A stretch of DNA of 63,748 nt, filler included, from Sluysia triapertura (GCA_046118255.1; 5 parts of 5 records of this genome joined end to end with filler, not necessarily neighbours in it); one strand, 5' to 3'; positions 13,235-60,957 are shown, numbered from the whole stretch's first letter. Program-made: numbers and translations. Notes: generated from the letters alone by a model not told the origin.

Positions 13235-13453
13235 GTGCCTCTTCCACTGGTAGTTCATCGTCCAATAGAAACAATAGTAATTCACAGTCATTGTCCAATA
13301 AGAAACGACTTCAGTCGACTTCCAATATTTCGAAATCAAAACTGAACGGAGTGTCATTGCGAAGATCCAATAATGCGAATAATCAGACTCGTCCTATTTC
13401 TATGGTGATTACGAATGAATGTAAAATATCTCCGGGTAATAACGATGATGGTG

Positions 13454-13508
<55 letters not shown>

Positions 13509-14238
13509 ACATGGAACTTGCGAAACAACAGAGAATACGAATAATAGGATTCAATATAATCGAAATTCAATCAGTATTGAAGAGTTTCAAGTTGATTTTA
13601 ATTTTATTAATAATTTAATTATAAAATCACACTATTCGTTATTACAACTACCTATAAAATTACAGGCTGCACTGTTTCTACGATCAGTTCTTCAAAATCA
13701 GATCAATAACAGTTTGGAGTTAGGTCAGTTATTTGTTCATCTGGCGCGCGCACAACCTTGCATTCGAGATTGTGTTGGGTGGACAAGAATCGAGTTAGAA
13801 CAATTTATCAGAAAAATGCCAACTTTGTTCGAGTTGACTCCTAACACGAGCAATCTTGATCAGTCGAACAATACAGGCTGGCGTGTTCGTTCTCGTAATC
13901 ATTCATTCAAGTTAATACAATCTACAATACCGCAGCGCTTGGAAACAGGAACAATGAAGACCAATGAGTTACTAGGCAATACTACTGTTGCAGATCAAGT
14001 GATTATATCACCTTCCTTAGATACAGCTGCTAATGTAGACGCAGTAACCACTATTGCAACTAACAACAACAACGGCGATCTGTTACCGGCTCGTGGAGCA
14101 CGTACTATCATCAATCATTGTGGAATCGTGTATCACGTGGCCAAACTATGGGGTATCATTGATCTAGGGCAGCATGAACATGTTTTCTTCGATGTATCTA
14201 TTTTCAAACATCTGAGTAATTTGGAAATACATTTCCAG
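13235..14238 (+). CDS. Internal exon of a LIN-66-like RNA-binding protein (Ser/Asn-rich region, winged-helix domain, start of cold-shock/OB domain)
   Basis: AG acceptor at 13233-13234 and GT donor at 14239, open for 1004 nt. Motifs AALFLRSVL...CVGWTRIELEQFI and GIVYHVAKLWGIIDLGQHEHVFFD are as recalled for LIN-66-like proteins. Poly-Asn comes from (AAT)n. Confidence 0.75.
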
Positions 14239-14539
14239 GTAAAAATTAACAATGTTTAATATAGTGTATTTGAGTATATTTGACTAATATAGTATATTAG
14301 TCTCTGATAATAAACTAAACTTCTTTAATATTGTTTCTACGTTATATTACTACTTAAACTTATCTGAAGATACAATCTTTTATTGACGTAAATTTCCTCT
14401 ATTAACATATTCTGCAAGTAATATCTTTTATAAGTTGTAAATATTTGAATACTCTCTAAAGAACTTTACATATTTCATGTAATAGCTAAATCTTTACTGA
14501 TATAAATTTCTTTAATTACAATCTGTATGATAATATATT

Positions 14540-14970: not shown

Positions 14971-15070
14971 NNNNNNNNNNNNNNNNNNNNNNNNNNNNNN
15001 NNNNNNNNNNNNNNTTAATTAATTAANNNNNNNNNNNNNNNNNNNNNNNNNNNNNNNNNNNNNNNNNNNN
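14971..15070. other. Artificial contig linker N44-TTAATTAATTAA-N44
   Basis: Identical 100-nt spacer with stops in all six frames, present four times. Confidence 0.97.
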
Positions 15071-15107: not shown

Positions 15108-15227
15108 GCTATCTTGCCATCTTAAAAGCAAAAGCTAGTAAAAATGCAATAGATAAAAATATTTTGATAGCCTTTTTTAAAATTATTTCACAATTATTCG
15201 TAATTTTTTTAACACATAATTATTTAC

Positions 15228-15667
15228 CTTTTCAGTGTTCGGTAAAGATGTTAACACTCTTCGCAAAACTTCTCCACTCGCTGCATCCATTGTATCGATA
15301 CAGAATTTCTGGGTATTATTTTCACATTCGTATTGTTGTTGTTGCTGCTGCTGCTGTAAATCGTCGTGTATAAAACCCATAAGTGTCTTAATTTCTCTTA
15401 ATATGTACACTGATAATCGCCTTATTGTACTGCGATACTGACACAACATAACCAAACAAAACCCTTCCACTTCATCTAACAAAGTCTTATCAAGAGCTTT
15501 AGAACACGTCTTCTTTGACGAATCTTTATCGCAGCATTGGTTCGATGTAGGTGGATTACACAGTGCGGTTTTCCAAGCATTTATCAAGTGATAGATTACT
15601 TTCAAACTACTTTCTAATTGACTGGTAGAATTGTCGGGGATTTCTTTCTGTACGAAGTTCAAAAATG
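15228..15667 (-). CDS. fry: Furry (FRY/Tao3/MOR2-PAG1 family) internal exon
   Basis: AG acceptor at 15669-15668 and GT donor after 15228. TFLNFVQKEIPD...LESSLKVIYHLINAWK...LDEVEGFCLVMLCQYRSTIRRLSVYILREIK matches recalled FRY sequence and splices in phase with the upstream exon. Confidence 0.9.
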
Positions 15668-16075
15668 CTACAAAAACGTAATAATAATCATAATAATTAA
15701 TTAAAAAATTATAAGATTAAAAAATTAATGTCCTTTTAACTATTACTTAATTAGTCGGCGTATAATTCCGTATTGTAAATCTTGTTCATTAGTAAACTTG
15801 CAATATACTGTATAAACTTCCGCCTACTACAAAAGTAGGTATGCATTGAACACCATGCGAGTCCATTGGACCAATAAAATAACAAAGTTTAAACCAATCA
15901 TATAAATAAACACATTGATCTGCTATATAAAAAGGGAGGAAGTAAAAACAATTTCCATCTAACATATTACTAGAAAATAACTAGTATAGAAACTTCAAAT
16001 TCTGCAGTTTTACAATTATTTAAAAATTACTTTAAGAGAATGAAATAATTTTACAACATGGAACAAAACACTGAC

Positions 16076-16284
16076 TTTGTAAAGTCTTATAACGCCAATT
16101 TGGAAATTCTTGCATAATATTTATTAAATCTTGATGTGCCAACGTTCGCAGTTCTTCATCGACATGAATTGTTAATCGAGCCAGCATTTCTACTAAATCC
16201 GATTTCGACATGTCAATAGGCAACAGTCGTGGTATAGCTGAAACACAGGTTTTCAATAATTCGATTTTCGGTTTTCGTTCAGAA
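16076..16284 (-). CDS. fry: Furry internal exon
   Basis: SERKPKIELLKTCVSAIPRLLP..MSKSDLVEMLARLTIHVDEELR resembles FRY [22 protein letters not shown]. Canonical AG/GT, with a 408-nt phase-1 intron to the next exon. Confidence 0.92.
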
Positions 16285-17859
16285 CTAAAAATAAATACAA
16301 GTAATGAAGTATAGATCTATTTATATGGATGCTAAAATATGCTGGATTAAAAAATATGAGATTAATTTTTAATTTTAAAGAATTATAACCTAAAGTTTTA
16401 TAAAGTTTACGAATAAAAGTTTGCAAATAATTGTATAAATTCTAGGGCTGTTCCCGATGCACTGGATAAATTTTCTGCACCGGTTTTTGATTTAGGTGCA
16501 CCTGATTTTATCTTATGAACATGATCAATAAATAAATGACAGTATAATAGTCTTAAAAATCATGAATTTTCATCCTTCTTGAATATTTTTTGAAATAAAA
16601 TTTATAATATTTACAATAAATTTCTAATTGGGAAATCAATGTCTCATTTTGGAATAATAGTTGTTCGTAGGTGTTTCATTATATAGTATATAATATACAT
16701 ATATAGTATAATATATATCCAACGAAATTCATAACGTTACGTTGTAATTTCATTCTTTTTTATTGTATTATATTTAACTGAATAATGCAATATTATGAAA
16801 TAGTGCTGTTCCCTGCACACCGATGCAATAAAATCCTTCAAAGTCCCAGCTTTATTGAAAACCATTTGAACTCATTATAATCTTTAGATTTTCTCTAAAG
16901 TAAATTTCACTAGTATTACATCATAAGATAATAATTAGCTAATTAACAAAATAATAAAAAAAACTTATTTTTTACCTTAAAATAAGGTTTTTAAAAATAA
17001 AATAGAAATGATAATAATAATAATTTATACAATGATGGAATTCCGAACAATAGAGATGATATAGCAAGAATTAATAAAAAAACAGAACAAGGAATTTTAT
17101 TTAAAATTTCATTATAATTATTATAAGCATCCAAACAATGTTTTAAACCAAAAAAATGAATTAATCTTTTAAGGTTAGCAGTGTTTGCTCACCCAGCAGT
17201 CCCATTGGAGTGCACAGTAAAAGAGATAATGCTTATTGATATCTTGTTGTACGACTATTTTGGGAACTTCTATTTATTGATTTTTATGAACAAAATTGGC
17301 ATTAACACGTTAATTTCGGTAAAGAAATGGTGGCGCTTAAGTTACAATTGCAGTTTATTAATTTAAACATAATATCAAATTTATATTTAAGATTTTCATT
17401 TTACGGAAATTTTTTGAAACTGTAGAAGTTCAAACATGAAGATGAAACAGTGAATGATTGAATGTGGATTAATAGTTTTGTATAATGTTTGATATGATAT
17501 GTGATGTATTTGATATGATGAATTGATGAGGTTTTGAATTTGATTAAAGTAGGCTTAGTGTTGAGTGGAACTTATTTGAGAAGTAAAATTGAATATTTTG
17601 GTTGAAGATCTATCAATATTGTTTTAGGTTTCAATTTGCACTTAACTGCTGTTGATTGCCTACTAATAGAGAAGTATTGGTTGTCTTGTCGTAGTTAAAC
17701 TTAAGGACATAGTATGAAGCGGAATAGGGTTTTTCAGCGCTAGCCAAACGTATTCACTTTAGCGATTCCTTTAGAAGTTTAAATGTAAAATGAATTATTG
17801 TGGGTTGGTACGGTGTCAAGACTAGATAAGTAATCTCGAAGATGTGATTAAACTATTTT

Positions 17860-18660
17860 TTCTTTGGAACTTCGGCGTCAAGAAATTCATGTGGCATGCG
17901 AGTTTAATTTAGGCTATAGAATATTCCTCCATCGAAGTAATATTAACAGTAATGTGTCGGACCAATTATGCTTTATAGATAAGGAATACAAAGAACTTTT
18001 TACAACGCGGTGAAAACGCTCTGACATTCTATTGAGTTGTGGGTGATAAGCAGTTGTTTTGAGTCTCGAGCATATCCTAAACATTGAATATTTGGACTCG
18101 AATGGGTTCTTTCTGCTCTGATGGAAGGATGGAAATTAAGTGTAAAATTATCTGAATAAGTCTTATTTACCACTGCGATGGACAACTAGTGGCTCAATAT
18201 ATTTTTTTATATCCAGGAATCATATTTTGAAAATTAACGAATATTCTACAAGGTTCGTAGAATAAAATATATTGAGCCACAAAGTATTTTGAAAAAAGCA
18301 TAATGTAAGTTTCGTTTACCATTGGATGACGATTTTAGTACGTCAATCGAATTTGGTACTACAACTAATTTTTGTACGTCAGATGATTTAGGTAAATTTG
18401 TTATTGTTTTATCAACTTGGATATGAGACATTGCAAACGAAAATGATGCGAATAAAAGTACGCCTCATATTTATACAAATTTTTTGTATGTGTATTCACG
18501 AACAGAAAAAAATGTATATTCCATGTGCGTACGCAAACAATAAACAAATGATTTAGTCCTTTCTTTGTTAATGTGTATGGATAGAAAAATTTATGTGTAT
18601 ATAAATAAGTATAAGAAATCATTTCGTCATGATGGCAAATATTAATTAAAAAGGTCATGT
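17860..18660 (-). pseudogene. Degenerate intronless orphan gene divergent from the Polinton polB remnant
   Basis: Three consecutive protein-like minus ORFs (18401-18658, 18246-18431, 18000-18185) broken by frameshifts and stops. Confidence 0.4.
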
Positions 18661-26143: not shown

Positions 26144-26243
26144 NNNNNNNNNNNNNNNNNNNNNNNNNNNNNNNNNNNNNNNNNNNNTTAATTAATTAAN
26201 NNNNNNNNNNNNNNNNNNNNNNNNNNNNNNNNNNNNNNNNNNN
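26144..26243. other. Artificial contig linker
   Basis: N44-TTAATTAATTAA-N44. Confidence 0.97.
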
Positions 26244-27343: not shown

Positions 27344-27670
27344 TTACAAATGTTCAAAATGTTCACCTTGAACTTCAATATAAACACATCTTTTCAACAC
27401 TGCGACATACTTTCTGGAAAGTTTCCTCTGAAATTTGGTTCCATTAGTGCTGAATTGTCCTAGGCGTTTTAGCATAAACTGGCAGGCCATTTGATTGGTC
27501 CTCGACGTCCAATCCAACGTCCAGGAAATGCTTCATCAAAAATGTCGAAAATGAAGATCACTGAATTGAGGGAACTCATTAACACTTTAGTCTTCAACAT
27601 GTGAAGGTAATGTTCATCATTAACAGTTCCCTCAAAGAAGAATGGGCCAACTAGACCAGTGTTCCCTTGT
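27344..27670 (-). mobile_element. maT/DD37D-like mariner transposase remnant
   Basis: GLVGPFFFEGTVNDEHYLHML, FPGRWIGRRGPIKWPA and a terminal GEHFEHL*. Internally deleted. Confidence 0.85.
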
Positions 27671-28138
27671 ATGTCAATATTACTTCTGCATCTCATACAA
27701 ATTCCTTCATAAGCAATATTTAATTTGCCAGTAAGAGCAGAAGGAGCATAAACACCGACACCTATAGTAATAATAGAAACACTATATATCTTTAAACATA
27801 TGAGCCTCTTTTATTTTATAAATGCAAGTTTCTGTTTGTAATGTAAATAAAAGTTATAAAATCGAAGTTTTGATGCGAAAAATATTTAAAAAATTGATAT
27901 ATTAATTATATTTTTTTCGAATAAAATTTAGAAAACTGATTATTTTTAACAAAATTATAATTAAATAAATCAATTAAAAATATTTATTATTATATTACAA
28001 ATTATTCAATTTTATTTTCTAAAATAAATAATTTAATAATAATTTACAAATAATTTAAATAAATATAAATAAATATTTTACAATCTAAAATAATGTTTGT
28101 TATATTTAATTTAATTTGTGTTTTTGTTTCATTTGTAG

Positions 28139-28333
28139 AAAGAATCCAAAAGTGATTTTGAGTTAAGTAGAACATTTTCCACTTTATTTTCACATATAGA
28201 ATATCATGAACAAATTCTGTCTAGCAATAATGAAGAAGAGTTTCGACAGAAACTGCGAGAAGAGGCCGAAAAATTAGCCAATCAGCATCAAAAAAAGAAA
28301 ACTGTTCTACCACGATCTACAAGGGTTCAAGAG
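28139..28333 (+). CDS. Isolated phase-0/0 exon, coiled-coil-like, gene unidentified
   Basis: Polypyrimidine tract with TTGTAG acceptor and GAG|GTGAGT donor. 65 open codons, KESKSDFELSRTFSTLFSHIEYHEQIL...RSTRVQE. Confidence 0.7.
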
Positions 28334-29087
28334 GTGAGTATTTAAGTTTCCTATAAATATACGATGAATCAGAAGTTTGTTGCTAATGCATTATTGTATT
28401 AGTGAGATATTAACGGTATGTCACAAGCTAATATCAATAACATATACACAATGATTTATTAATGATTATTAATTTGACATAAACTTTTACTTTATATCAA
28501 CTTTTACATAAATTTAACTTTATAAAGAAGAAAATTAAATTAACGATTTTACCTTATCTATTTTGGCATGTTTTGCTCAATTTCAGTGTTCGTAACATTA
28601 CTAAATTTCATGTCATCTAGAAATTTATTGATTAAAAATGATCTTCAAACAATTTTAATTAAATTAATTAATAAATGTGCTTATGTATTTTTCGAAAGCG
28701 ACACTTTTTAACACTGGAACATACATATAACCACGACATATCATTATTAAAATGATTATTTATTGGGGTTAGTACAAAATTATCGATGTAAAACAATAAA
28801 ATTATTGAAGAGTACATGTCTAAAGTTCCATTAAGAATAATGATTGCATAATTGAGTATAATAGAATAAAATTGTTAGACGGGGCTGATGGCACAGCTAT
28901 GAGGCGAGAGGATCCGGTTTAGAAAGAAAAACTAATAATAAATTAAGATTTCAACTTTGTTTTTATTAATGACAATCTTTAATTATCAAAAGTAAATTGC
29001 AAACTAAATTTTGTTCTGTTTCTTATTTTCGTTACCAAATTCAATTGCATTACATTTTTGGGTTTTTAATGCGATATTTTAATAAGC

Positions 29088-29700
29088 TGTGGTGGCCAAC
29101 CAATTACTTTAAGAATTTTATATCAACAGGACATAACAAAATTACTTTTCAGAACATTTCATAATTGTTAATATGTGTAAACAGTCTAAACATCAAAATC
29201 ATAATCAAGATAGAAAATCATCAAATATATATCTTAAAAATTAATTTTAAACATTTTAAATTTAATTCAACATATCTCACATTCCATAATATTTTACCTA
29301 TTTCCATCAAAACCTTTTTTATATTTTATTATTTAGATCCACTAAAACTATTCGTATTTCAAAACATTTTAAATTTACAATTTTACAATATCATAATCAC
29401 TTCTACATTCAAAACCATTAAAGTACATTAAATTTCATAACACCAGAATTACAATTTACATCTTAAACTCATCTTAATACACATCTTAAATTCAATCCAA
29501 TACATTTTTAGTTTACAACCCTTAACATTAAATCTCTAATATCACTTAAAAACATTAAATTATCACTTTGAAACCATTATAGATATTGCAATTAAAATAA
29601 CATTCCTTTAACATTTTAGTTATCAATCATTTCCTTCAAACATTCTCTTATCAGCTCTTCCATAACTCATATCCTTGTAATCACCGAACAAATCTCTATT
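29088..29700 (-). mobile_element. Family C strand-skewed terminal module
   Basis: Begins TGTGGTGGCCAACC, the reverse of GGCTGGCCACCACA (ending 53249) and GGTTGACTACCACA (ending 36764). Followed by about 600 nt of C/A-rich, G-poor sequence. Confidence 0.55.
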
Positions 29701-30639
29701 AAAGGAAATATGAAATGTAACCAATATTTCAAAAGCATTTGAAGAAAGAAATGAAGTATGTACATAATCAACAAAGAAAAGAACTAAAAACGATTTTATT
29801 TTAAGACATTAAGTTAAGACAATTTTAGTTTGTAATGAATCATTTTAAAGAATTTTATTATGTTGAGAAAGAAAATTTAGAGTAGAAAGATTATGTTGAA
29901 AATGGTAAAGAATTTATGTCCTTTGTTTGATTTTAGTATTACTATTCTTGTTATTATCAATTCATTTTATTTAATCTAGTATAATTGTTATTATTATTCG
30001 TATCATTATTTTTATTATTCACTACCATTACTTTATGATTAAACTATTACTATTAATCAACATTATTCATTGTTGTCAGTACACATTGATTGTTGCTGAC
30101 AGCATATGTACTGTCAGTGACGACATTTTCTTTTCGCACACATACATATTGTTGCAACATGGCAATCAATTAATTTTTCTTGTTATTTGATTGGATGTCC
30201 AATCTGTTCCATCTCATTATTTCACATTCCACTGGACATCCAATTACAATCACTTACATTGTGTTTATCTCAGCAACATTTGGTAAAAAATCATTATTAA
30301 TGTTATTGGGTACCTAAAATTAAAAATAATAAAGAAATGTTATTATATGCTTTTAATAAATGCACACTTCATATCTCTCATGGGATTGGATACCCAATCA
30401 ACAAGGACAATAATAAAATTTAAAAAATAAACTTTGTCAGAAAATTATTATTTGAGCAGAATAGACACTAAAGAATAAAAAATATAAATCTAAAGTTACC
30501 AATATAGATATAAAGAAAAACTTGCTATTATCAAATGTGCAGTTAAATTATTCTGTTTCATTTGGTAATTCTTGTGATGAAAAAAGTTTACGTTAAATGA
30601 ATTATTTGATTTTAGATATTATTATGATCATAGTATTCC

Positions 30640-31515
30640 ATCAATTAACATAGTACTCTATTCTCATGAAAAGATAATTTGAAAATAGGTTATGTTGTTT
30701 GTCCGATTAACAGCAACCAAATAAAATATGATATGTATTGAGATATTTTAAAAACCCGAATAGTTATATTGTAAATAAAAAATTTGTGAAGTTAAGGTCA
30801 ACATATAATGAAAAATTAGTTTCAGCTAGCATGTTTCATGGATTACATGGAGTATCTCCGAAAGTTATAAACGCTTTTTATTTTGAAATTTATGTTAGAT
30901 TTGTTCAAGCGAGAGAATTTATTGTGATTTATTAAAGTAACAAAAAAGTCATTACCAGGTTTGAGTCATGTCCATTCTTTGAAATATAAAATGATAAAGC
31001 AAGATGAAAATATTGATAGATTAGGTATAACAGTTGATAATCAAGTTTTAGAAATTCATATTAATACATATTCAACGTCTAACAAATTAGTTATTCCAAA
31101 TATAGTAGATGTTGATTCAGTTGTCATGACAAATAAAGAAACATCATCAAAAACAAAATCAGGAATTGGCCGTTTAAATTTCTTCTATAGTAGCAGCAAA
31201 CCTTACCATATAAATTTACAAACTTGCTCCAATGAAAACAAATACTACAAGAATGCTATTTGTTTATACGAAACAACACCAACTTGTCAATGCTCTAAAT
31301 ACGGTAAAATTTGTCAACATTGTCACGGGTTCTACCAACGAATAAATTCTCTTTTGGCAAGTTTGACAATGGAACCATTAGATCTAGTTATCCAAAAGGA
31401 CCCAAAAGTAATTTTTCAATTCATGTTTTTTAATTTTTATTCTGATATAAATCAATTATCATATTTTTATTATCATATTTGTATTTGTAGTAATGTCCTC
31501 TACTCACGCGATTAA
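30640..31515 (+). pseudogene. Intronless orphan gene with Cys/His cluster (CxCxxxGKICxHC), disrupted 5' part
   Basis: ORFs 30738-30935 and 30961-31515. PTCQCSKYGKICQHCH resembles a SWIM-type zinc finger. Confidence 0.45.
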
Positions 31516-31904
31516 ACCAGTAAACTCTGTGCTCTAATTCCGAGCGAAGAGAGTTTTAGGTTTAATATTTTAGAAAAAAGAATAATATTAAATGATTTAT
31601 AAATTATATTTATAAATTCATGAAATTCGAATAGTAGAATAAAATGATATTTAATAAGATTTATATTTAACCTTTTTGCTTTAGCTAGATCCGTATAATT
31701 ATTAAAATAATTGAAAAAAAGACAGTTTTATTTTTACAGACATTTAGTTTAACTTTAGCTATACATAATTTTATATTCCGTATTATTAATTATTATATTC
31801 CGTGCTATTAATTTCAGACTCATTGCCAAGCTTTCGGATTGCAGATTCCTGTAAAATAATAATAAATTTTATCTATAGGGTTTAGTAAAATAAGTAAAAT
31901 TACA

Positions 31905-32605
31905 TTACGGATGATGTTAGAACAATTGTAGTATGAAATTGTCTACGTGGTTGTTGAGCACCATGCTTTAATGAATTCACTAGTAGTTTAACTCCTATTC
32001 TATGTCTTAGCGCAACATCATAACTGTCATCGATTTCGGCTATTTTATGGGCAATATGCTCCATACGTTATACATCTGTTACAACGATCGAGTTGGCTGA
32101 GGCATTGTATTATTCGTAGTCGATTAACAGAAAATGTATCTAACGATGGTGTAAAGATAGATTGCTCTCAAAATTCAGTCAACGGCTGACTTATGTAATT
32201 GATATAAATATTACGACTCCAATTTGAAGAATCAAAATTGAACAACTTATATTTTGGAGAAAAAGATAAATTTTTAGTGTAAATATTTGTGACCGGTTCC
32301 TTCATATTAGTAAACAATGGGTTGAATAATTTTTCGACATGACTTGACGATCGTTTTTGATACAATATTTCATGGAATAATCTTTTCAGTTTTTGAAAAT
32401 AATTATATGAGACAGATACTGCAGATATTAACCAAACATCGTTGAAGAACTTTATACCTTGAGTTATATAGTGAATAAATTTTATTAGCTTTCGTACAGC
32501 TTGAATATCTATTAATTCGTAAGTACAAATATGAAATGGTCTAGTTTTGATAACAAGTAAAATCTTTAATTTATATTTCAACCATTGAGAATGCTTCATC
32601 ATCAA
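31905..32605 (-). pseudogene. Intronless orphan gene, disrupted
   Basis: 145-aa ORF 32168-32605 continues after a stop/frameshift as MEHIAHKIAEIDDSYDVALRHRIGVKLLVNSLKHG. Confidence 0.45.
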
Positions 32606-32613
32606 TACAAAAA

Positions 32614-32700
32614 ATCAACCTGATTGGCCGTCCAACCAGGGAAACGTATAAAAATAATGATGATAATAAATTTGGTTGGACGACCAATAATAGAGATCAA
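32614..32700. promoter_or_regulatory. Shared inverted-CCAAT/TATA element, copy 1
   Basis: ATTGGCCGTCCAACCA-GGGAAACGTATAAAA...-TGGTTGGACGACCAAT. Homologous to 36027-36110. Confidence 0.55.
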
Positions 32701-32915
32701 AAGTTGTAAGATTGGTGTGCCAATCAATGTGAGCTAAACGCGTTGCTTGATAATTGATGATTGAACCACTATCAGTGGTGTCAGAGATTAGAAATATATT
32801 TTAATGAAATGGCTACTGATAGTGGTAGTTACTGAATAAAATTTAGTAATTATTATTAAATAAAAATAATAAAAATTAATAATTGTGATAATAATAATAA
32901 TAACAGCAAAATGCT

Positions 32916-32917
<2 letters not shown>

Positions 32918-32970
<53 letters not shown>
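32918..32970. repeat. (ATT)n microsatellite
   Basis: Directly visible. Confidence 0.95.
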
Positions 32971-32971
<1 letters not shown>

Positions 32972-33914
32972 CCCAAAAACGCATAAACTCTGTATTCTGT
33001 GACTTAAACATGATCTTTCTTGTAATTCTTCATAATTATGTAAAATATCATTAAAAAACTTTAAAATCATTTTTCCAAAAAAGAAAAGAAAATTTCGCAA
33101 AAAGAAAATAAGCTTCTAAAAATAGAATAGAAGCTTCTACAATGTTCTAGAATGTTTTAGAACATTACATATATTACTATTTGCTGATGACTAGTATATA
33201 AACTAGCATAAGTTCACTTAAAATGCACAATTTCATTATCACAATTTTGTTTTACTAATTTTATGTAAACATGTACAGTACTACAATCTCAATTATCGAA
33301 ACTACTTTGTTTCATTTTCAATCACTTCAGCGTTTATTGACGTGATTTTATCGACGCAATCTCCATTTTTATTCTCTCAATTCGGATACAATTCGACAAT
33401 TTGATTTCATACAATTTCAAAGGACGTATTATAATCATTTTATTAGTTATTTGATAAATTTTATTATTGTAAGAAGGTTTCGACCTAAAAAATTGAAACA
33501 TAAATTACACTTAAATTAATTTTATGGAACTTCCAAAACCACGATCTATTGAGGGGAGCGTTCATAATTAAAATAGCACACATTAAAAATAAAAGATCTG
33601 TAAGATTTTGATTTCAAATTAATAGATATTTTAATAACTTGATCTAGTAGCTTATATTTTCTTTGTTCATTATTAATTTGATGATATAATTAAAATATAT
33701 ATATTCCTCAGTTTCTTATTTTAATTACATTAATTGGATTGATTATTAATTAAAGTGACTAAGAAGACCCTCTAATTTTATTTCACGTTTTTCATTAAAA
33801 TTAACTTAGTGTTGGTTACAGAGACGCCATCTTTACGACGTGAGACATTTACTGTAATCGGACCCTGCTGGATTTTATTGTGCCGTAGGTTAAGAGGTAA
33901 GAAAAACCACAGCA
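32971..33914 (+). mobile_element. Family A LTR-like repeat, copy 2
   Basis: Shares AGAAGCTTCTA, GACTAGTATATAAACT, TTTACTGTAA..GGACCCTG and the AAAACCACAGCA end with 2263-3089. Confidence 0.7.
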
Positions 33915-35082
33915 AATTAAAGATGTTAGGTTGTCATCACAACCCTATAAAATAACTTAAAATGTCATAATGACCATTTAAAATATTTTTAATCATTTAA
34001 AAATCTTATTTTCCAAAAAAATTATTTTTCGAAAAAAGAAAATTCGCTTCTAACAATAGAACAGAAGCTTCTAGAATGTTCTAGAACATTCCATCGATCC
34101 CCATTGGCTATGACTAGTATATGAACTATCATCAGTTTAATGAAAATCTCCATTTTGAAAAATCCACAATTTTTAAATTACAATTTGCAGCGTCTTTGTT
34201 GGAGGAATTGTGAATTTTTAGTAACTGTTCGCAATTCGTAGTTATTTCAGAAATTGGAAAATATCTACTCGACTACAGCTATTTAAATTCAATCCATTTT
34301 TTGGTATATTATATATTTAAAGGTTCAATTTAAAATATACTTAAATTTCCTATCATTTGTAAATGTTTATATTTATATTAATTTTTATATACCCCATATA
34401 TTTAGGTATAATATCTACCTAAAATATTTGTTATTAGATTAAACACCATCAGAGCTTTATTCCGTAAAATAATTATTTTTATCTTTTCTCTTACTACTAT
34501 TATTATTAAAATTTTGTGTTTCATAAATAAAGTTAATATTCTTGCGTTTAGTTAATTATTAAAAGTTAAAGAATAAATTATTAAAATTTTTTGAGAAGAT
34601 TATACTTTTGAGCACACTTGTTAAGACCGTAGCCACTTAACAATTAAATTCAGATAAAATATTAGCTCATACAGTTACAGAAACACTCTCTTCACGACAT
34701 AAGACATTTACTGTAACTGGACCCCTCTCAAAAGATTGTTGTGGTTTGTTATTTTTGTTATTGATCTTTACATTTATGAAAACTTGAATTATCTAATAAT
34801 ATTTAAAAAATTTTGTTAAATCTTTTATGGTTTTACATTTAAATCTTTTGTGACATTACAATTAAAAGAGTATAAATAACAAATGAAAAATAATCAATAA
34901 ACAAAATTTTATTTCTAAGTAACAAAATGAAAAATTTTAAGTCTATAGGTTCTTTTCCATGTATACCAGATAGCCAAGTCGATGTTTTAACGCCTAAAAT
35001 AAAATAAGGAATTAATTTATAAATAGAGCAAGAAAAAGAATTAATTACGTTATAATTGACCACGACGTGCTGTTCTAATTGA

Positions 35083-35931
35083 CTATGACTCCGCGTCAGA
35101 ACCTTGTTTGAACTTGTTGTAATACATGATATCATTGCCTTTATTAATAATTAGATACCTTTTCATATTCTGACATAATATAGATTCATGTTTGATGGCA
35201 ACACTTTTATTTCTTGAAAGCATAATATTTTTATTCGGTTCAACCAATAAACCTTTGATTCTTTTATTTTTTATATGATACGAATTTTCGGCATCTCGTG
35301 CTGTTCGTAATTCTGTTCGCTTCTTTCGAATTAATTCTCGTTCTGTTTGAGTTATATACATCAAATACATTGGTTTATTCTGACATTTATTATGTACACT
35401 ATATTGCTTGCATAATTAACGAATATTTACTCTAATCGCTGTAACGGTATCGAGAAGTTCTTTTAGATTTTGTTCGGTGTTCTTGTACGGTTGGAAACGT
35501 GCACGTTCCGTTGGAATAATCACATATAGGATATACTTTGTCTGAACTTCACAACTAATTACGCCTTCATAGCTGATCGTATCGTTAAGTATAATTTCAT
35601 TTATATTATGTGGTTCTTGGTAATGGCAGTTACTAATTAATTTTGTTATATTTCGTCTAATTTTCATAGATAAGCAACATTGACCATGGTCTAAATTTAA
35701 TCCGCTGTCTGCGCCGATGTTAATCTTTGGTAATGAAATACATTCAATTGTAACGAAGTCAAGGTTCATTCACTAATATTGTAAATCTACATGTTTGTTG
35801 AATCATTGTGATGGTAACTTGTCCGACTTTTGTAATTTAGCACAAGCTGCTTCCACTTCTGACATTGTTTTAGCAGGATTGCAAACAAATTGGTCAAAAT
35901 AATTCATCTTTTTCCTTAACATTACTGACAT
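35083..35931 (-). pseudogene. Intronless orphan cargo gene, disrupted by stops
   Basis: MSVMLRKKMNYFDQFVCNPAKTMSEVEAACAKLQ reads through stops into ORF 35416-35769 and then 35083-35370. Confidence 0.5.
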
Positions 35932-36026
35932 AGATAAACTCCTTTGGTGTTTCTATTTTTACAATGTTGTAACTTTAAAAATAATTTATGAAAAATTTTT
36001 ACCTTCTAAAATTTTTGTACTACAAC

Positions 36027-36110
36027 ATCAACCTGATTGGCCGTCCGACAAGAAAACGTATAAAATTAATGAGCAGAATAACTCTGAGTAGACGACCAAG
36101 TCTAAAGATA
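36027..36110. promoter_or_regulatory. Shared inverted-CCAAT/TATA element, copy 2
   Basis: ATCAACCTGATTGGCCGTCC...AAACGTATAAAA...GACGACCAA, as at 32614-32700. Confidence 0.55.
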
Positions 36111-36242
36111 GAAAGATGAGCCACCATCAATGTTGATGTGAATTTATATACATTAATCAGTAATGACAGCATTGATGGTGGTATTTATGATTTACAAAGT
36201 ACATAGAATTAATAAAGATGTTAATATTAACAATAATAACAA

Positions 36243-36287
<45 letters not shown>

Positions 36288-36288
36288 C
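36243..36288. repeat. (ATT)n microsatellite
   Basis: Directly visible. Confidence 0.95.
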
Positions 36289-36859
36289 AATATTAATTAA
36301 AAATAAAATACAAAAATTCTTCGTAAAAAGGTCTTTCTTTGATAATCTTTAATTTCTCAATATATTTAAAAGTTAGAGGTAAAGAAGGAACATGATATTT
36401 GATGCTACCTCATCCTTATGTTAAGATAGTATTACGAACTGAAATGTTATTGAAATGTAGTTGATTGAGGCCTAAATACCTTGGAATATTATTATTGTGT
36501 TGTTTTGAGATGAGTGGTACAATACTTTAGATACTTTTTAATGTAGTTTAATGATTTAGAGTGTTATTGTGGTATATATGTTATGGGACTGTGGATATAA
36601 ATTGACTTTGGTAGATGAATTGTTTTGGTGAATGTAGAGGAGATAAATGTGATAATGCTAAATGTTAAAGTGTGTGATTTTATATAGAATGTGTTGATTT
36701 GATGATTTTGTAATGTTGTAAAAAAAGGAGGATTTTTATAAATTTTGAAGGGTTGACTACCACAAAGATATTTTGTCGTAGGTTAAGAGTTAGAAAAACC
36801 AAATATCAGAAAATATCAAATACTAGAAAATTTATTAATAAGGTACTGCACAAAGAAAT

Positions 36860-37300
36860 GTTCATTCGTTGATAATTAATAATAATCATAACGACTAACT
36901 TTCCAAGTAAGAAGGTGATTGCACAAAACATACCTTAGTTTAAAATATTACATTGGTTACCACTAAAACTCATTAATATAACTTATAAATACTTACATTA
37001 TGGAAGTCCTTGCTAATATCTCTTGGAAATAATAAAAAATTCACAAACTAAAATAAATTAAGATATAACAATGCATATGGAATCCACAGTGCCACTAAGA
37101 TATGTGATAGGCTATATACTGTTTGTTTCAAAAATATACAACCAACTACCAGACAATGTTACATTAAAAATATTATGAAAAGGCACAGTCTTTTCTGTTT
37201 CAGAAATATTATAAATATTGATTTACTTTAAGCGCTATTGAGCACTTATTTTATAGAAGATATTAGCGCTATCATTATTATTATTATCATTAGTATTATT
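36860..37300 (+). mobile_element. L2-clade LINE 3' fragment, copy 3
   Basis: ILHWLPLK motif and an AAGCGCTATTGAG...TAGCGCTAT-(ATT)n end. Homologous to copies 1 and 2. Confidence 0.8.
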
Positions 37301-37962
37301 AATTATTAATTATTATTTAGAATTAACCTTAATAAATTAAACTTATTTTATACTTTAATCAAAGACAAAATTTAAATACGCATATAAAAATTTAACGTTT
37401 CTTAAATTTCTTTTTTTGATCATAAATTACATAATTTTATTAAGTTTAAAAAAATAATTATATAAAATAAATAAAAATAGCTCTAAACGTGTCAATTCAG
37501 TAAATAAAAAAAAGTATAATTTCGAAAGTTTAGCAGAACTGTAATGAATATTTTACATATTAAAAGAATTTTAATGAGTTAAATATAAGAGTAAAAGAAA
37601 TTTAATTATAAAATGAATCAATTAATTCATAAACATATTTTTCACTATTAATTTAAGTACATATAAATGTCATTTCATATATTTATTATTATTAATTACA
37701 GAATGTGTATCATCCAATAGGAAGTGGTTTAAAACAAGATGTATTATCGTTATTAAACAGTTACAAATCAGTATTAAAAATATGTTAGTTGTTATTGATA
37801 TTGTCAGGGTCAACAAAATTGGACATTGGACATTACTAAATTTAACTAAAAATAACAATTATTGTGTTTATTAATTATCAATTTTATAACAATTTTTGTA
37901 TTTATTGATTATTTTTATTGGACTCTTAATAATTTTACTGTAAGTTTAATAATTCTAGATCG

Positions 37963-38062
37963 NNNNNNNNNNNNNNNNNNNNNNNNNNNNNNNNNNNNNN
38001 NNNNNNTTAATTAATTAANNNNNNNNNNNNNNNNNNNNNNNNNNNNNNNNNNNNNNNNNNNN
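37963..38062. other. Artificial contig linker
   Basis: N44-TTAATTAATTAA-N44. Confidence 0.97.
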
Positions 38063-38970: not shown

Positions 38971-40185
38971 TACAAGCATTCAATTGTGGTTGGTTGACAA
39001 AAGCATAGGTAATTAAAAATTGTGACACAAGTTAAAAATCGGTTATTCGTCAGGTATGTGAAAATAGGCAATTAATCTGATTCTACGCACAGTAAAAATC
39101 TTTTTACAAGTTAAATCTACATTCAAGTTTAAACTGTCTAGGAGCCGAGTTTGGTCTAATTTAGTCTAATTCTATAAAATCTGGTTGTGAGTAATATTGT
39201 TATTTGGGTATCATCTTCTAATTTGAAGTGGTCATTCATCAAAGGACATATTCTAATCATTTTTCTTTTTCCACGAAATCGTAAGATATTTGTTATTAAG
39301 TTTTTTAAATCCTACAATTAGTACAGGATCAACTTTTGACTTAAAATATTAAACTTTTGAATCGAAGAATTAATCCTGGATTAAAATCTAATTTAAAATT
39401 TTGAAATTTTTAACCAATTAAGAGAAATCTTAATATAATTGTTGTCATTGTTTATTTTGATATTTTAATTTTTTGTAATAAATTCTTCGGATACTTTATT
39501 GTTTACTTTCGAATAACTTAATGAGATAGTTGTTACGAATACATTGTTTTAAGTGTCTTAATTAGAAAATAACCTTTAAGAATAATAGGTGATTAAGGAA
39601 GGTTGTAGTAAGTGGTTAAAATAAAGAATATCTAATTATAATTAAAAAGTAAATAAAAGACCCTTATTTAGAATAATGATACATTAAAACACATTTAACA
39701 ATAATTAGTAAGAGATTAATTAAGAAGAAAATTTGTATTAAGATTAGGGAACTATTTATCGCAGAATTTAATTATAAACCACTTATTTCAGGCGAACGTT
39801 TAATCATATTTTCAAATAAACTAATAAAGTTTTATTAACCTATTTTAGTTTAAAGAAATAACAAAAATTATTACAATAGTAAAAACATACAAAATTATAA
39901 TAAATAACATCAAAAAGAAATATATACTATTATCAATTTAAATTTTGCTTAAAAGTTTCTGTCCGTAACATCATTTTAATTTTAGACATCAAATTATGTT
40001 AGTATAAGCCAAAGTATAACATTTAAATATTTAAAATGAAAAAAATAAATATTTAGAATTTATTTTTGCGTTACTATGACATATGCCGATAAAGAAAGGT
40101 CAATATGTTAAATAAATAATTAAAATGTATATAAACAGTGATTGAAAATCTAGAATTTATTTGAAAATATTGGATTCAAATTAAA

Positions 40186-40581
40186 ATGTGGAAAATTTTT
40201 ATGTGTGCTATTTTTATATTTTTAAGCTGTAAGTTTGAATTCTTGTTGAACTATTTATGACTATTAGGCTATAATGTCGAATGTTTAACTTGTTTTATCT
40301 GTCGTGATTGTGCAACTACTCCAAGCAATGTAACGTCGTCGTGTGCGACAGGCGTCTGTGAAGTATTTATTAAAAATGCTACAATAAATAGAAATTGTTC
40401 TACTACAGGCTCGGTAAAACAATGTCCAGATGGCTCAAAATGTTGTGATGCAGATTTATGTAACAATTATTCATGTAAAATCGATAATACAAAACTCTCT
40501 TGCAGCAGTACTCATTTCCTTACATTCAATACAATCGGTTTAATATTGCTTTTCATCGTGACTTTTATAAAGCAAATTTAA
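40186..40581 (+). CDS. Ly6/uPAR (three-finger, LU domain) GPI-anchored protein; exons 40186-40228 and 40268-40581
   Basis: Signal peptide MWKIFMCAIFIFLSC, then a 39-nt phase-1 GTAAGT..TAG intron. LTCFIC..C...C...C...C...C..CCDADLCN gives ten Cys and the CCxxxxCN signature, followed by a hydrophobic C-terminal tail. 118 aa, intact. Confidence 0.88.
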
Positions 40582-43034: not shown

Positions 43035-44070
43035 TAATTATATGATAGATATGCAATGGTTCGAAGATATGTAAGTATATCTGATCTTCCAAAGTTAGAA
43101 ACCGTTCTTGAAACTCTCTCATTTAGCAGTCTATACTTACAATTAGATATTTGAACCACACCTGTTGTACCCTGTAAAAAGCATGCTTTTGATGTTGCAT
43201 ATCTTTTGTCAAACCTTCAAAAACTTCATATTGTAAGTATTGCAAGGGATAATGCCATTCCTCGACAGTATTGGTAGTTCTGGCTATTCCTGAAACACCG
43301 GCTGAAAACCGATTCCATTTTTCTATTGAAAAAAGTGGCCTAGAAAGAATATTTTCCTGCGTTCTATTTCAAAAAAGGTTATGAACTCATCAAGTCTTTC
43401 CACTTCGCTTATTATTGATCATGCAAAAACTTCAAATGATTCTTCTACTTCATCTAAAGGAACATAAGCAAGTGCGGCAAAAGATCGAATATAATCTCTT
43501 AAATGATCATTATTTTCATATTTTGATTTCATTACTAATTCATTTACTTTTCTTAAAACGCTATGACAAAGGTGAAAATAACATTCTGTTACTCTAGCAA
43601 TTGGAAATATTGTTCAAAATCAACCAAAATTTTTTCAGGAGAACTTTCAGGAATTAATTGCCTGATAACAGTTAACAGTCGAATATAGGTATTATTTGTT
43701 TTGTTTGGCAGTAAACAATACACCCCTACTAAATTTATCCCATCTGAAAAATGGAAATGAATTGTAAAAAGTTGAAAAAAGATATTTGTCACCACTTTGA
43801 AGAGAGAGGACCTCGAAAGTCCATTACGAAGTAATAGACAACCTTCAATTAAGATTCTATCATCGCCAGGTCCATAATGAAACAAGATAATATCAATTAA
43901 ATGTAAAGTAATTTCAAACGATAAATCGAATGGATTTGCTGGAATTGGAGCTGCATTAATTTCTTATATAAATTTTCTTTTTTGCCTATACAGTATTTTC
44001 TTTGGCAACCCCATTAAAAGATTATCATCTAATGACCTCATGACATCCGTCATTATATTAATCGGATTTA
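43035..44070 (-). mobile_element. MULE (Mutator-like) transposase pseudogene
   Basis: GPGDDRILI, FKVVTNIFFQLFTIH, VYCLLPNKTNNTYIRL, PEKILVDFE and a terminal YLRTIAY. Frameshifts and deletions present. Confidence 0.88.
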
Positions 44071-44169
44071 CAGTGCGGAGAGGGCTTTTTATATTTTATA
44101 TTTAAAATTTCATTTAAAACTTTCAATTAATATTAAACATTTTAAATAAAACTTAGAAGAAATTAACAA

Positions 44170-44945: not shown

Positions 44946-45616
44946 TCAAATAATATTCACACTGTCCTTTGCATCATTGTCGACCATAGCCTTGCCAACC
45001 TCACATTCCAATTTATCTTCACCAGTTTTTGCTAATGTTATTAAATTTTTAACTTCATATTTTGTAGGACTCAGTGCTTTACAAATATATTGTAGTATAT
45101 CTAGTAGACCTAAATAACTACCTTTGTAATAATCAAAAATAAGTTCAACCATATAGTATTCATTTCTATAAAAACAAGCAACATTTTTAGTCAATTGCAA
45201 TTTACAAAAACGATATTCTATTTTTTCAAAAATGTTTCATTAACTTTGCCTGAGAATTGCTTAATATAAATATTTGGATGCATTGCCATCATAAAACAAT
45301 GATAACGAACTCCATATTTGGAAGGTGAATATCCATTAATTTTTAACCAACGATCCAACCATGGATTTTGACTCATATCAAAAATAAGAGCTTCTATTTG
45401 ACATAATGTTGACACAGTGCTCGTATCGAATTTTACACTAATTTTAGTTGTTGATATATCAAGAAACAGCATTAAAAATATAAACATAGTATTCTGCAAA
45501 CTAGACATTAAACAGAAATTTCGAATAAAATACATATAATTAGTTTCTAAATCTAATTCAACTGATTTGTTTGCTAGTACAGATTCCAAATTTTGAGCTA
45601 TTAACATTTTAATCAT
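44946..45616 (-). pseudogene. Intronless orphan gene, one stop/frameshift
   Basis: Adjacent ORFs 45218-45616 and 44946-45200, with tandem CCAAT boxes upstream at 45812-45830. Confidence 0.45.
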
Positions 45617-45899
45617 TTAAGATCAACATAATTTTAAAAAATCAATTTTTTATAATTTTTTAACTTTTTATTATTTGTAGTTTTTAGTTACGGATTTCGT
45701 TTTCGTAAGATAAATTACTATACTAAGTATTGATTCGACTACAGTGGTGATAAATAGAGTTACGTAATTCTAAAGTATTTAAATCATGCAATTGCACTAA
45801 TCCTTTTTCACAACCAATAATAATAACCAATAATAATCAGAACAATTATCAAGTTTGTTTTGCCATATAATATTACAAGAGATAACATCTGCTACACGG

Positions 45900-46480
45900 C
45901 ATTTTAGAAAAATGTCAGTTCCATAAATTGCATGTTAATATTGAGTTGTAATAACTAATAAAGTTTAAAGACGCAACAATATAATTAGTACTGGATTTTG
46001 TAGGTTTTGTTGTATTAACTATTTCCTTATTATTTTCAAGTGTTAAAACTTGTGGTGCTCTACGAACAAGAGATTGTTCATTACTTTCACGGTAGTTGTT
46101 TAATTCTTCTAAAGTTTAATCACATGTTTCGTTATTAAATTTATCATCATTAGTCACATTTTCTTTTTCTTGTTGCGTTTTAATTAAGATACTTGTTTTT
46201 CTATCTTTCACATAAATATTATTATCGATTTCTGATTTATATTCGTTCACTAGTGATGTTGCTTTATTTTGCATCATTGTGGCAGTTCTAGGTCTAAGAT
46301 GTGTGAAGTTGAGTTTATTTGTAGGTGCATGTTCAGGAATGATTACATCAGTTTTAGTATGATTTGCCGCGAATTTCTGATTGTGAGATGATTAATCTGT
46401 GTTTCTTTTAAGAGATCGTGCTAAATTATCGCATACTAACTTACTTGCTGTCATACATGAATCTTCATCACTAATATAAT
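45900..46480 (-). pseudogene. Intronless hydrophilic orphan gene with in-frame stops
   Basis: MTASKLVCDNLARSLKRNTD*SSHNQKFAANH...THLRPRTATMMQ... stays in one frame for more than 150 codons with two stops. TGACGCAA motifs lie upstream at 46722 and 46765. Confidence 0.4.
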
Positions 46481-47237
46481 GTTATATTTTGTTTATTTGA
46501 TTGATGAAGCTGTTTTTTCTGCTTGGTAAATATATACCACTAAGAGACTATCTATCGCGGCTATTGGGAAACACATACAAATATATAGAAATTTACACAA
46601 ACAAAAGAATTTTTAAAAAATCAAATGAAAAAAATCAAATACAAATCATTTTTATAAATCTCCACTGAACAATACTAAAAATGACAAGATTAACAATAAT
46701 TTTTATAATATTATTAAGGAATGACGCAAGAAATCAGTGACATTCTACCTAAAAAAACCAGGAGTGACGCAACAAACACTAAAAATATCAATATCTATAA
46801 AGTTTAAAATAGTGATAATGCTCATGTATTTTCAATAATCTTAACCTAACTTAATAACGATTAAATATTATAGAATAATTTTGGTAGGGATCCACGAAAA
46901 AATCAAAGTTGTCAATTTCCTATGAAAAAGTAAAAATAAAAATGATATTGCTAAAATATTTCAAAGTAATTTTATTTTATCTGATTAGCAAAAAAAATTA
47001 TAAAAATTTTTCATTTTATACTCTGTTATCATCCAATCAATCCAAGGTCTCACAATCAAACACTGTCACACAAATCATCAAAATCTCTTTGAGAATCAGA
47101 CCGACAATAACAACTTTGATATTGTACGTTCCATCCAACTTCATTAGGAATAAAACGTAGAAATTTGATTTATTATCAACCATCACGTTCTTTTACTCAC
47201 ATTAAAGTATCAATCAATAATATCATTAACACACATA

Positions 47238-50657: not shown

Positions 50658-51555
50658 TGTTGTAAGAAAAATAATGAATTTAATTTCTCTTTTTGGAATT
50701 TAATTTATTTTCTACTGAAAAATGTTTATGGTTCTCATTCTCAAACAAACCATTATACAAATATTTCAAAGTCATACATAAATTCTCCTCTTTCATAGCA
50801 ATCATCTCATATTAAATTCATTATATTTGCATCATTCTAAGTATAAAAAAATTCAACATTCCATAATTAAGAATTAATAAAAATTTGATTTTCTCAATAT
50901 TATGGCTTTCCTTGCATGAACTGCATTTTTAAAACAAATACATGAATAGTTTCGAATTTAACATAGCATTCTGCATTCAAATGTTAAGATTTTAATTAAT
51001 TAATCTATTTTGAAACTTAACTTATTCCATGTTTAAAGGTTTTATTAAGGTTTTAAAGTTAGTTAGTAGTTTATAAGGCATTCAGGAGGCTCTAGATGTT
51101 TTCACCTTCACTTCTCATATTACTCTTTCTACTTCTTCATGTTAATTATTACCATACTAGATTTATTCTTAATACCAATAATTGATTTTATTTTTCAAAT
51201 ACTTTAAAGATGTCATATTTTAATACTTTATAAGATTACTCGAAGATCAAGGTTTAAAGGTTCATAAAGTCTCAGATGATCTCAAAGTTCACAAATTCAA
51301 AAGTATCCCAATGCCTTTAAAGGTTTATTAGTGTATGTCAAACTTTCACAAGGTCTCAAACCCTTATATAGGTTTATAAAAACGCCAAGGTATTCTTTAA
51401 CTGTTAACATTATTATAGATGTTTTTACATTCACAATTCTTATTCCGATATTGTTTATAATGTTCACTCCATCAATTTGTATCAGTTCTTCCTTTATTTT
51501 ATAATTCTACGTGTTTATCACACATCTCTTAATCCACAGATGGAAAATCACAACA
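50658..51555. mobile_element. Family D repeat, copy 2, LTR-like (TGTTGT...ACAACA)
   Basis: Short inverted termini, strand-skewed composition and homology to 47238-47900. No TSD seen. Confidence 0.55.
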
Positions 51556-51960: not shown

Positions 51961-52060
51961 NNNNNNNNNNNNNNNNNNNNNNNNNNNNNNNNNNNNNNNN
52001 NNNNTTAATTAATTAANNNNNNNNNNNNNNNNNNNNNNNNNNNNNNNNNNNNNNNNNNNN
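51961..52060. other. Artificial contig linker
   Basis: N44-TTAATTAATTAA-N44. Confidence 0.97.
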
Positions 52061-52189: not shown

Positions 52190-52672
52190 AAAATAATTAA
52201 AAACAACTATGATATGAAAGTCACCATTTTTGCTAATTTGAACAGGAATAGTTACTGTAGCCGGTGAATCATGTATGATTGGAAATGTTGAATGGTGCCA
52301 TCACAAAGTAATATCATTCGTTATACTGACACCTTGATGAATAACTCAGTAATAAATAGTTTTTTTTAGGTCCACCGTAGTGTTATGAACTACAATCTAG
52401 ACATAATGAAGTTGTAATAGGAACATCAAAAAAAAATATTAGTAGACTGCACTAAATCTCCTTTAGAAAATAAAGAATTATTAACTAATGTATCTAATAG
52501 ATGATGAGCAGTTGTAGGACTATAAAATAATTCTTCACATGTTTTTGACAAATAAATATCGTTTTCAACATGACTTGTACACATTAAATCATTCGAAATA
52601 TTACTTGTAGCACTTGCAGGGCTTCTATGCTTTTTATTTTTACTAAATACCTAGATTGTAGAATGAACATCA
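52190..52672 (-). pseudogene. Intronless orphan gene, disrupted
   Basis: MFILQSRYLVKIKKHRSPASATSNISNDLMCTSHVENDIYLSKTCEELFYSPTTAHHLLDTLVNN... continues through stops. Confidence 0.4.
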
Positions 52673-52799
52673 TTTTAGTATTTTTATAATGAAACAAGAC
52701 TACAAAATTTACCTCAAAGACATTTTATTTAATCGATAAACATTTATTTATAAAAAAAACAAAAAAAACAAAAACATAAATTTCTTTGCTTTAAAATTA

Positions 52800-53249
52800 C
52801 ATGATCTTTCTTTGTTTCTTGTGTATATCTTGAGAGCTAGAATTAAAATGATGTATATTGAAGTGTAAAAGGTTATAACTTGAGTATTTTAGAACAGTAT
52901 GAATGTTAAAATGAGTGATCAATGTTCAAGAAGGTCATGTTTGATTGTTAGGATTTGATGAAAGAAAATCGTGAATTTATAATGTTTAGATTGCTTTGAA
53001 GATGCCTGTTAGCTGATTTCTAGTGTGCTTGTGATTTGATTATTAGGAAATGAAAATAAAATATTTTAGATGAATTTTTTAATGTAATTGAATGGTTTTG
53101 AATGCATTAGTGGTTTGGGTGTTATGAGATTATGGGTTTAATTGATTTTGACGGGTGAAAATGTTAAAAAGATGTGATTTTGGTTATGTTGTGTTGAAAG
53201 GAAAAAAGTTTTAATAAAATTTATTAAAGGTGAAAGGCTGGCCACCACA
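52800..53249 (+). mobile_element. Family C strand-skewed terminal module
   Basis: G/T-rich tract ending GGCTGGCCACCACA, matching the 29088 and 36764 termini. Confidence 0.55.
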
Positions 53250-60735: not shown

Positions 60736-60957
60736 TCTCAAAAATATACTTAGCAAAATCTTATGATCCAATCGATATATTGAGTTATTTTTTAATGTTT
60801 TATTTTTATATTTTTAATTATTTTTAGCGAACTATTAAATAGCACAGAGAGCAAACAAAGTACTGATATAATAGTTTGTACATATTTAATTTGTAGTAAA
60901 TTGTGTTGTCAGATTCTAAATAAATATGATTTCTGTACGTTTTGGATCTCAGTATTT

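Follow-up and report, generated by a model that had tools for sequence, protein, structure and literature searches.

The DNA analysed here, referred to as the window, is one strand of 63,748 nt consisting of five genome parts joined with filler, and all coordinates count from its first letter. It is animal DNA of ~24% GC. At positions 34737-36764 lies a 2028-bp insert, which starts with TGTTGTGG, ends with GACTACCACA and is bordered by two exact 5-bp copies of AAGAT (34732-34736 and 36765-36769), i.e. a target site duplication (TSD). The insert interrupts a high-copy, LTR-like repeat on the plus strand, which comprises a module B starting with TGTTAGG, a heat-shock-element (HSE) array (34064-34091), a CCAAT/TATA region and the first part of a module A (33924-34731). 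The remainder of module A, whose last bases are damaged, follows the insert at 36770-36801. Within the insert, the minus strand carries a frame of 294 codons without known homologues (35931-35050), which we refer to as the cargo.

That the insert moved as one unit, as a preliminary description of this DNA had proposed, is borne out by its flanks: the AAGAT copies are exact, and the host A module can be aligned across the insert with three intact copies (3089, 33914 and 48353), apart from a single additional base at the site. Taken alone, the duplication is weak evidence, because 218 of 1031 arbitrary ACA ends find some TSD partner 0.3-7 kb away in a free search; it counts because both ends, TGT and ACA, sit at the break of the host repeat. 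Identical 5-mers at the same spacing are present at 220 of 60870 window positions, and among the TGTNR starts less than 7 kb away from the right end of the insert, 34737 alone comes with an exactly duplicated 5-mer. Readings with an 8-bp or a 2-bp TSD were dropped since ACCACA is kept at three ends and TGNTGTGGTTT at four, and a 6-bp TSD would require sacrificing the final A of ACCACA, which is kept by the ends at 29088 and 53249. The alignment of an 891-nt contig from another copy breaks off at 34738, the side of the unaligned part being unspecified. The insertion of 34737-36764 into the host repeat is real. It shows the TGT...ACA ends and the 5-bp TSD expected from retroviral-type integrases, again as described previously. 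Likewise, the reported absence of paired LTRs, long TIRs and transposase was confirmed for the insert, which has neither a long TIR (z 0.2) nor a terminal direct repeat (z -0.8) and thus lacks the two repeats of a TRIM or LARD; a transposase or a Pfam match to integrase was not found either. The data support the view that the insert is non-autonomous. The statement that only this copy shows a TSD needs qualification: a second exact 5-bp duplication, AATTA, flanks the host-family copy at 33039-33914, possibly by chance.

Modules B and A form the termini of a single high-copy repeat measuring ~830-890 bp. To describe its copies we used contigs of one public run (X1), possibly not independent of the source of the window, which were aligned at 80% likeness to the stretch up to 36200. 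The start of the repeat is fixed at 33924 by 206 X1 contigs with loose letters before that position, and the summed X1 depth, which is not equivalent to copy number, reaches ~1e5 over B, amounts to 3e4 at the A end (33914) and is far lower inside. A second copy on the plus strand (33039-33914, 876 bp) lacks the usual first ~40 nt. B copies are present at 33924-34170, 2263-2547, 33063-33255 and, on the minus strand, 10027, and they contain five of the seven HSE arrays matched in the window (0.36 expected). In the X1 loose-end consensus of the family, this array is followed by ATTGG and TATATAAA. Judged by these motifs, B represents an LTR-like U3 promoter, and the family is a candidate for a heat-inducible retrotransposon promoter. 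HSEs are described for flatworm Mag, CsRN1 and Gmr1 LTRs, and also for one Helitron, in the available part of PMC12801592. Viral contigs did not contain the pattern of the B start.

The two ends of the insert differ from each other. Read inward, the left end (34737-34747, plus) is TGNTGTGGTTT, which is found four times in the window as compared to 0.13 expected, namely at this end and at three host A ends. The right end (36733-36764, minus), which reads TGTGGTAGTCAACCC inward, is of the same type as the ends at 29088 and 53249 (for each of them, 4 of 3000 background sites score as high) and similar to the start of host module B (9, 26 and 316 of 3000 background sites for the B starts at 2263, 33924 and 10027, respectively). 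Thus, the ends of the insert are asymmetric, each matching a different end of the host family, and are alike in their first few bases only. The likeness is confined to the termini. Over 32 nt, the left end matches the A ends weakly (84-328 of 3000 background sites), the first 250 nt of the insert do not align with B past the terminal bases (z -0.5), and none of six others can be aligned with the part following the cargo (z -1.6 to 1.8). Comparison with the LTR consensus termini TGTTRNR...YNYAACA, as given in the accessible part of PMC3601003, yields agreement at 7/7 and 6/7 positions, and the termini TGTTG and TGTGG also fit TGTNR. By analogy to the host family, the left end would be a U5-type and the right end a U3-type attachment end; if B-to-A corresponds to U3-to-U5, the insert then lies on the minus strand. 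In the window, a TGG primer-site start follows none of six 3' ends and a purine-rich run precedes one of five starts (2263); inside the insert there is neither a polypurine tract nor a second LTR start.

Upstream of the cargo, the insert contains a promoter-like block (36024-36118) in common with 32611-32706, which harbours GGCCAATCAG on the minus strand (36042-36033), CGTATAAAA on the plus strand (36057-36065) and GACGACCAA (36091). The similarity to 32605-32900 is pronounced (z 15.6, 0 of 300 shuffles) and substantiates the shared CCAAT element noted before. The block is followed by an inverted repeat that may form a long stem (36121-36183; RNA fold z -5.1, 0 of 200 shuffles), by an (ATT)n microsatellite (36243-36288), located at the same place in a sister cassette (32918-32972), and by a G/T-skewed terminal module (36330-36764; 94 G and 28 C), which is preceded by AATAAA at 36302 on the plus strand and is C/A-rich on the minus strand. 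Both the microsatellite and the skewed module had been recognized initially and are present. The terminal module is related to 52800-53249 (z 6.4) and weakly to 29088-29537 (z 3.3) and 11382-11831 (z 3.2). Past the cargo stop codon, the minus strand provides TATTTATAAA (35016-35025), a weak candidate for a TATA box or an AU-rich element that was picked post hoc, and ~140 nt past the stop a candidate poly(A) signal, AATAAA, followed by a T-rich stretch (34908-34913), which is the sole such hexamer on this strand between stop and end. Sites of the TATTTATAAA type occur 12 times in the window, three of them shortly past cassette ORFs (35025 minus, 31607 plus, 44901 minus). There is no tRNA and no Rfam match in 28000-38000. 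A sequence at 35965 that seemed to duplicate the left end internally did not stand up to comparison (z 0.6), and a metagenome match of a 20-mer from the promoter (L001) was attributed to chance as it resides in a contig of 59% GC. A further match (L002) covers 11 residues.

An AATAAA followed by a T/GT-rich stretch is found on both strands (minus 34913, plus 36302), and the orientation of the unit is therefore not fixed by this signal. The conserved CCAAT-TATAAAA pair is directed towards the G/T end, away from the gene, whereas the weaker TATA-like site past the gene points in the opposite direction. Read on the minus strand, the unit comprises a U3-type end, the C/A-rich module, (AAT)n, the inverted repeat, a forward CCAAT ~105 nt before the ATG and the gene, and subsequently the TATA-like site, AATAAA, ~170 nt and a U5-type end. 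Read on the plus strand, the order CCAAT, TATAAAA (conserved with 32645), hairpin, AATAAA and G/T stretch fits the motif order given in the part of PMC3601003 available to us. We lean slightly towards the minus strand, with the gene in sense orientation in U3, as compared to the plus strand, on which the gene would be antisense and the G/T module a long U5.

The cargo had been described as an intronless orphan gene. It is a real coding trace: the frame contains six stops in total, as compared to a mean of 21.7 per frame and to 13-30 in the other five frames, and only four of 5000 shuffles yielded a stop count as low in any frame. No homologue emerged, in line with the designation as orphan, but the gene is not intact. 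Five internal stops, at codons 43, 53, 54, 172 and 283 of 294, show that the cargo is a pseudogene in this copy. For homologue searches, stops were read as X or the stop-free part was used. A word search (0 of 309 candidates, lengths 162-517), phmmer against 1.84 billion representatives, Pfam and NCBIfam, and viral contigs (0 of 40 stretches) all returned no match; all these searches are less sensitive because the frame is broken in the insert copy. Folds predicted from the single sequence were of poor quality (mean pLDDT 41.0 and 38.5). Foldseek with these folds retrieved nothing at E <=0.001 in PDB or BFVD, and the best VIA hit (Z 6.0), like the Foldseek result, carries no evidence on the fold. 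A PH-domain-like resemblance perceived by eye was dropped for want of Pfam support.

Contigs of run X1 place the same gene in many other copies. The summed depth is unbroken over the left end and the gene (264-774, as compared to 11-22 for single listed contigs), amounting to 264-336 at the left end and 401-774 across the gene. Among the matches listed, up to 23 contigs have a differing letter at one and the same cargo position, and differences at or flanking all five internal stops account for 38-94% of the depth; the breaks thus look private to the insert copy. One contig, 35018-35368, spans the end of the gene and its flank. In another contig, the alignment begins exactly at the cargo stop codon, with 113 unlike letters past it, which hints that the coding sequence may be kept better than its flank. 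Altogether, the X1 data would fit tens of diverged cargo-bearing copies. The same cargo gene is common to a multi-copy family in X1, and the claim that each member carries a different gene is therefore contradicted at the level of the family. The gene seems to belong to the repeat as a regular component and not to have entered this copy by a secondary insertion.

Different genes are nonetheless encountered when families are compared. A sister cassette on the minus strand (32048-33038), split by the host-family copy, contains the same promoter block and (ATT)n together with a different decayed ORF. Another one on the plus strand (29088-31515) has a related end at 29088, a C/A-rich module and a decayed ORF with a CCCH-like zinc finger (PF25427, E 4.6e-5, below the curated cut-off); this ORF scores 0.90 in the Atlas to unnamed, partly SWIM clusters of low recognition, and a PARP-like reading of 30600-30990 found no support. 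These two sisters uphold the earlier observation that cassettes carry different ORFs. Two further members proposed at the time could not be confirmed as gene-carrying. At 52190-53249, a related terminal module and end are present (52800-53249, minus; module z 6.4) close to an assembly gap (51961-52060), and neither a stop-poor frame nor a Pfam match was detected. At 59470-61705, an ankyrin remnant is evident (~59760-60780; Pfam E 1.1e-9), and the terminal module is unrelated to that of the insert (z -0.4), its terminus being equalled by 435 of 3000 background sites. Judged by the ORFs of the two sisters, different genes appear to go with different families and not with each copy. No convincing far end with a TSD was found in the window for the ends at 29088, 53249, 48353 and 3089.

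Further loci in the window resemble such units. On the minus strand at 44949-46481, two or three decayed orphan ORFs are followed by a C-skewed stretch and the A-type end at 48353; a module of this locus is repeated at 50667-51247 (74%), there is no Pfam match, and the locus is possibly another gene-bearing cassette. A frameshifted ankyrin-repeat gene at 59395-61330 (minus) is flanked by orphan ORFs on either side and accompanied by a G-skewed stretch that ends at ~61702, and this locus is not linked to the ends of the insert. At 10100-11831, an ATTGG-TATAAAA pair and ATT repeats precede a G-skewed module that ends with CACCTACA and is weakly related to the module of the insert (z 3.2). Elsewhere, a decayed retroviral-type integrase core, possibly of Gypsy or Ginger origin, can be discerned by eye at 17750-18300 on the minus strand (Pfam rve_3, E 0.15). 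A DNA-transposase remnant (DDE_3, Pfam E 1.3e-5) is among the loci at 5436-6002, 27470-27890 and 43250-44100 (all minus), where we presume Tc1/mariner-like and Mutator-like remnants. The plus strand has a decayed frame with a weak PH_2nd_LRR match (57954-58745, E 0.009) and a cysteine-rich frame that we take to be Ly6/uPAR-like (40165-40578). Host exons with long single-residue runs are present at 13204-14259 (plus) and 15186-16316 (minus); they include an egalitarian exon (Pfam WH_Egal, E 1.7e-12) and, as we assume, a furry-like gene. The nearest Atlas cluster of the egalitarian exon is mostly Platyhelminthes (score 0.81), which provides a lead towards a flatworm. Assembly gaps of 100 nt with a short all-frame-stop spacer at their centre (14971-15070, 26144-26243, 37963-38062 and 51961-52060) mark joined contigs, and elements may be cut there.

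We propose, with a probability of about 0.6, that the insert represents the solo LTR of an element of Gypsy type, probably from a flatworm, and that this LTR encodes an accessory gene, as is the case for sag of MMTV. Its assignment to the Gypsy LTRs is probable. The preliminary description had named a solo LTR of an ordinary Gypsy/BEL element with a secondary insertion as the finding that would overturn its concept; the solo LTR now fits best, while the secondary insertion is not favoured. According to this model, a full-length element would have been integrated by a retroviral-type integrase via a 5-bp staggered cut. By recombination between its two LTRs, gag-pol would then have been lost and a single LTR retained between the TSDs, and the remaining copy would subsequently have decayed. 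The LTR would be oriented on the minus strand, with the gene in sense orientation in U3, driven by its own CCAAT promoter, and with the poly(A) signal ~170 nt before the end. Related LTR families would possess similar ends or promoter blocks and different genes. The gene would survive in the solo LTR because it lies inside the LTR. The frame 35931-35050 is located within the TSD-bounded unit, which amounts to an ORF inside an LTR only if the unit is an LTR, and the exact AAGAT duplication falls in the range of 4-6 bp anticipated for a solo LTR. TSDs of 4-5 bp are given for flatworm solo LTRs in the accessible part of PMC4558846. Neither a paired copy nor an internal gag-pol region of the insert was found in the window. 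As a guess by analogy alone, the cargo protein might be an accessory regulator whose target is either the host cell or the element.

A different scenario, which we consider unlikely but worth retaining, assumes non-autonomous cassettes that are moved as DNA: a class of integrase ends, short and asymmetric, would be common to several families, each with its own promoter-bearing gene (an orphan, a CCCH zinc finger and others), and a Ginger-like or retroviral-type helper integrase would act in trans. It is kept at this level because neither a paired LTR nor a primer site nor a parent element came to light, a primer site being absent after all six ends. The self-contained gene with CCAAT upstream and AATAAA downstream also speaks for it, as does the recurrence of two end types in families with unrelated interiors. 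The decayed integrase remnant at ~17750-18300 could point in the same direction, but is not linked to the ends of the insert. Moreover, solo LTRs give the same signature, gene included, an LTR-like promoter is situated close to the 5' end of the host family, which has the same ends, and described integrase-type DNA transposons have TIRs of 40-297 bp, of which the insert has none. The earlier proposal of a segmented or multipartite derivative of a Polinton-like element finds no support. Polintons/Mavericks have long TIRs and a 6-bp TSD. The insert lacks a long TIR, there is no polB or capsid, and viral contigs yielded nothing; the insert and the sister cassettes scanned gave no Pfam match to integrase, polB or capsid genes.

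Still less probable is an internally deleted LTR element that kept its outer LTR ends and a gene from an internal accessory region, and that was then amplified or became the commonest remnant; such genes would be comparable to the antisense ORFs of plant Retand, ORF3 of rotifer elements or the accessory ORFs of planarian Burro. Accessory ORFs beside LTRs are common, as far as the available parts of PMC11963269, PMC5408684 and PMC6431247 report, and both the lower depth at the left end than across the gene (264-336 as compared to 401-774) and the contig diverging right past the stop codon would agree with such an origin. However, neither a second LTR start nor a purine tract nor a terminal repeat lies within the insert, and a unit without two LTRs is unable to retrotranspose, yet the left end is multi-copy. 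We regard it as very improbable that an ordinary non-coding solo LTR received a retrocopy or a gene of another element in this copy alone. The window is dense in nested insertions, which would make such an event conceivable, but cargo and left end have a similar depth in many contigs and the contig at 35018-35368 bridges the end of the gene and the flank. In addition, the sequence shows neither an evident poly(A) tail nor an inner TSD, and the adjacent promoter block is common to another gene-bearing cassette. We retain the gene-bearing solo LTR as our preferred reading. If true, formation of solo LTRs would scatter whole promoter-bearing orphan genes across the genome, from which lineage-specific genes as well as falsely annotated host genes could arise. 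If, on the other hand, no parent retroelement exists, the insert would represent a new class of integrase-moved cassette.

Several known systems share individual traits with the insert. Ginger1 and Ginger2/Tdd transposons are characterized, in the part of PMC2836005 available to us, by TGTNR termini, a 5-bp TSD in TDD-4 and TDD-5, TIRs of 40-297 bp and an integrase gene. The insert likewise has TGTNR termini and a 5-bp TSD, but its ends are asymmetric and there is no integrase gene; it is not a Ginger because the TIRs are absent. Plant Retand elements resemble it in having an extra unassigned ORF next to LTR promoter sequence, but these ORFs are antisense and located between pol and the 3' LTR, that is outside the LTR, according to the accessible text of PMC11963269. 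Burro, a giant Gypsy element of dugesiid planarians, possesses many accessory domains, ankyrin repeats and zinc fingers among them, as described in the available portion of PMC6431247; here, the extra domains reside in the polyprotein or in internal accessory ORFs, and the likeness is one of description. Flatworm Gypsy/Metaviridae LTRs (CsRN1, Mag and Gmr1) have in common TG...CA ends, the 5-bp TSD and the HSE and TATA of the host family, and the sister-cassette ends TGTGGTG match the CsRN1 5' motif TGTGGYG, as judged from the parts of PMC3601003, PMC12801592 and PMC4558846 at hand. In contrast, these LTRs are ordinarily non-coding, whereas the insert would be a 2-kb LTR with an ORF.

This distinction leads to MMTV. 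In the accessible part of PMC4667437, LTRs are described as ordinarily non-coding and MMTV sag is named as the exception; sag is located mostly within U3, for which an internal promoter is described, and 490 of 527 sag-bearing contigs are solo LTRs without gag, pol or env. MMTV-like LTRs parallel the insert in having a single gene inside the LTR, a promoter described in U3 and a majority of copies that are gene-bearing solo LTRs. They differ in that the insert resembles neither sag nor any other known protein in sequence, superantigen homology of the cargo being without Pfam or phmmer match, in that the host is an invertebrate and in that sister cassettes carry other genes. Full-text literature searches, as judged by their listings and abstracts, brought up no description of an invertebrate Gypsy element with a protein-coding LTR; repeat databases and most subscription articles are outside this scope, and the family may be catalogued already. 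If true, an invertebrate LTR lineage with a different accessory gene in each family would extend the exception hitherto represented by MMTV sag.
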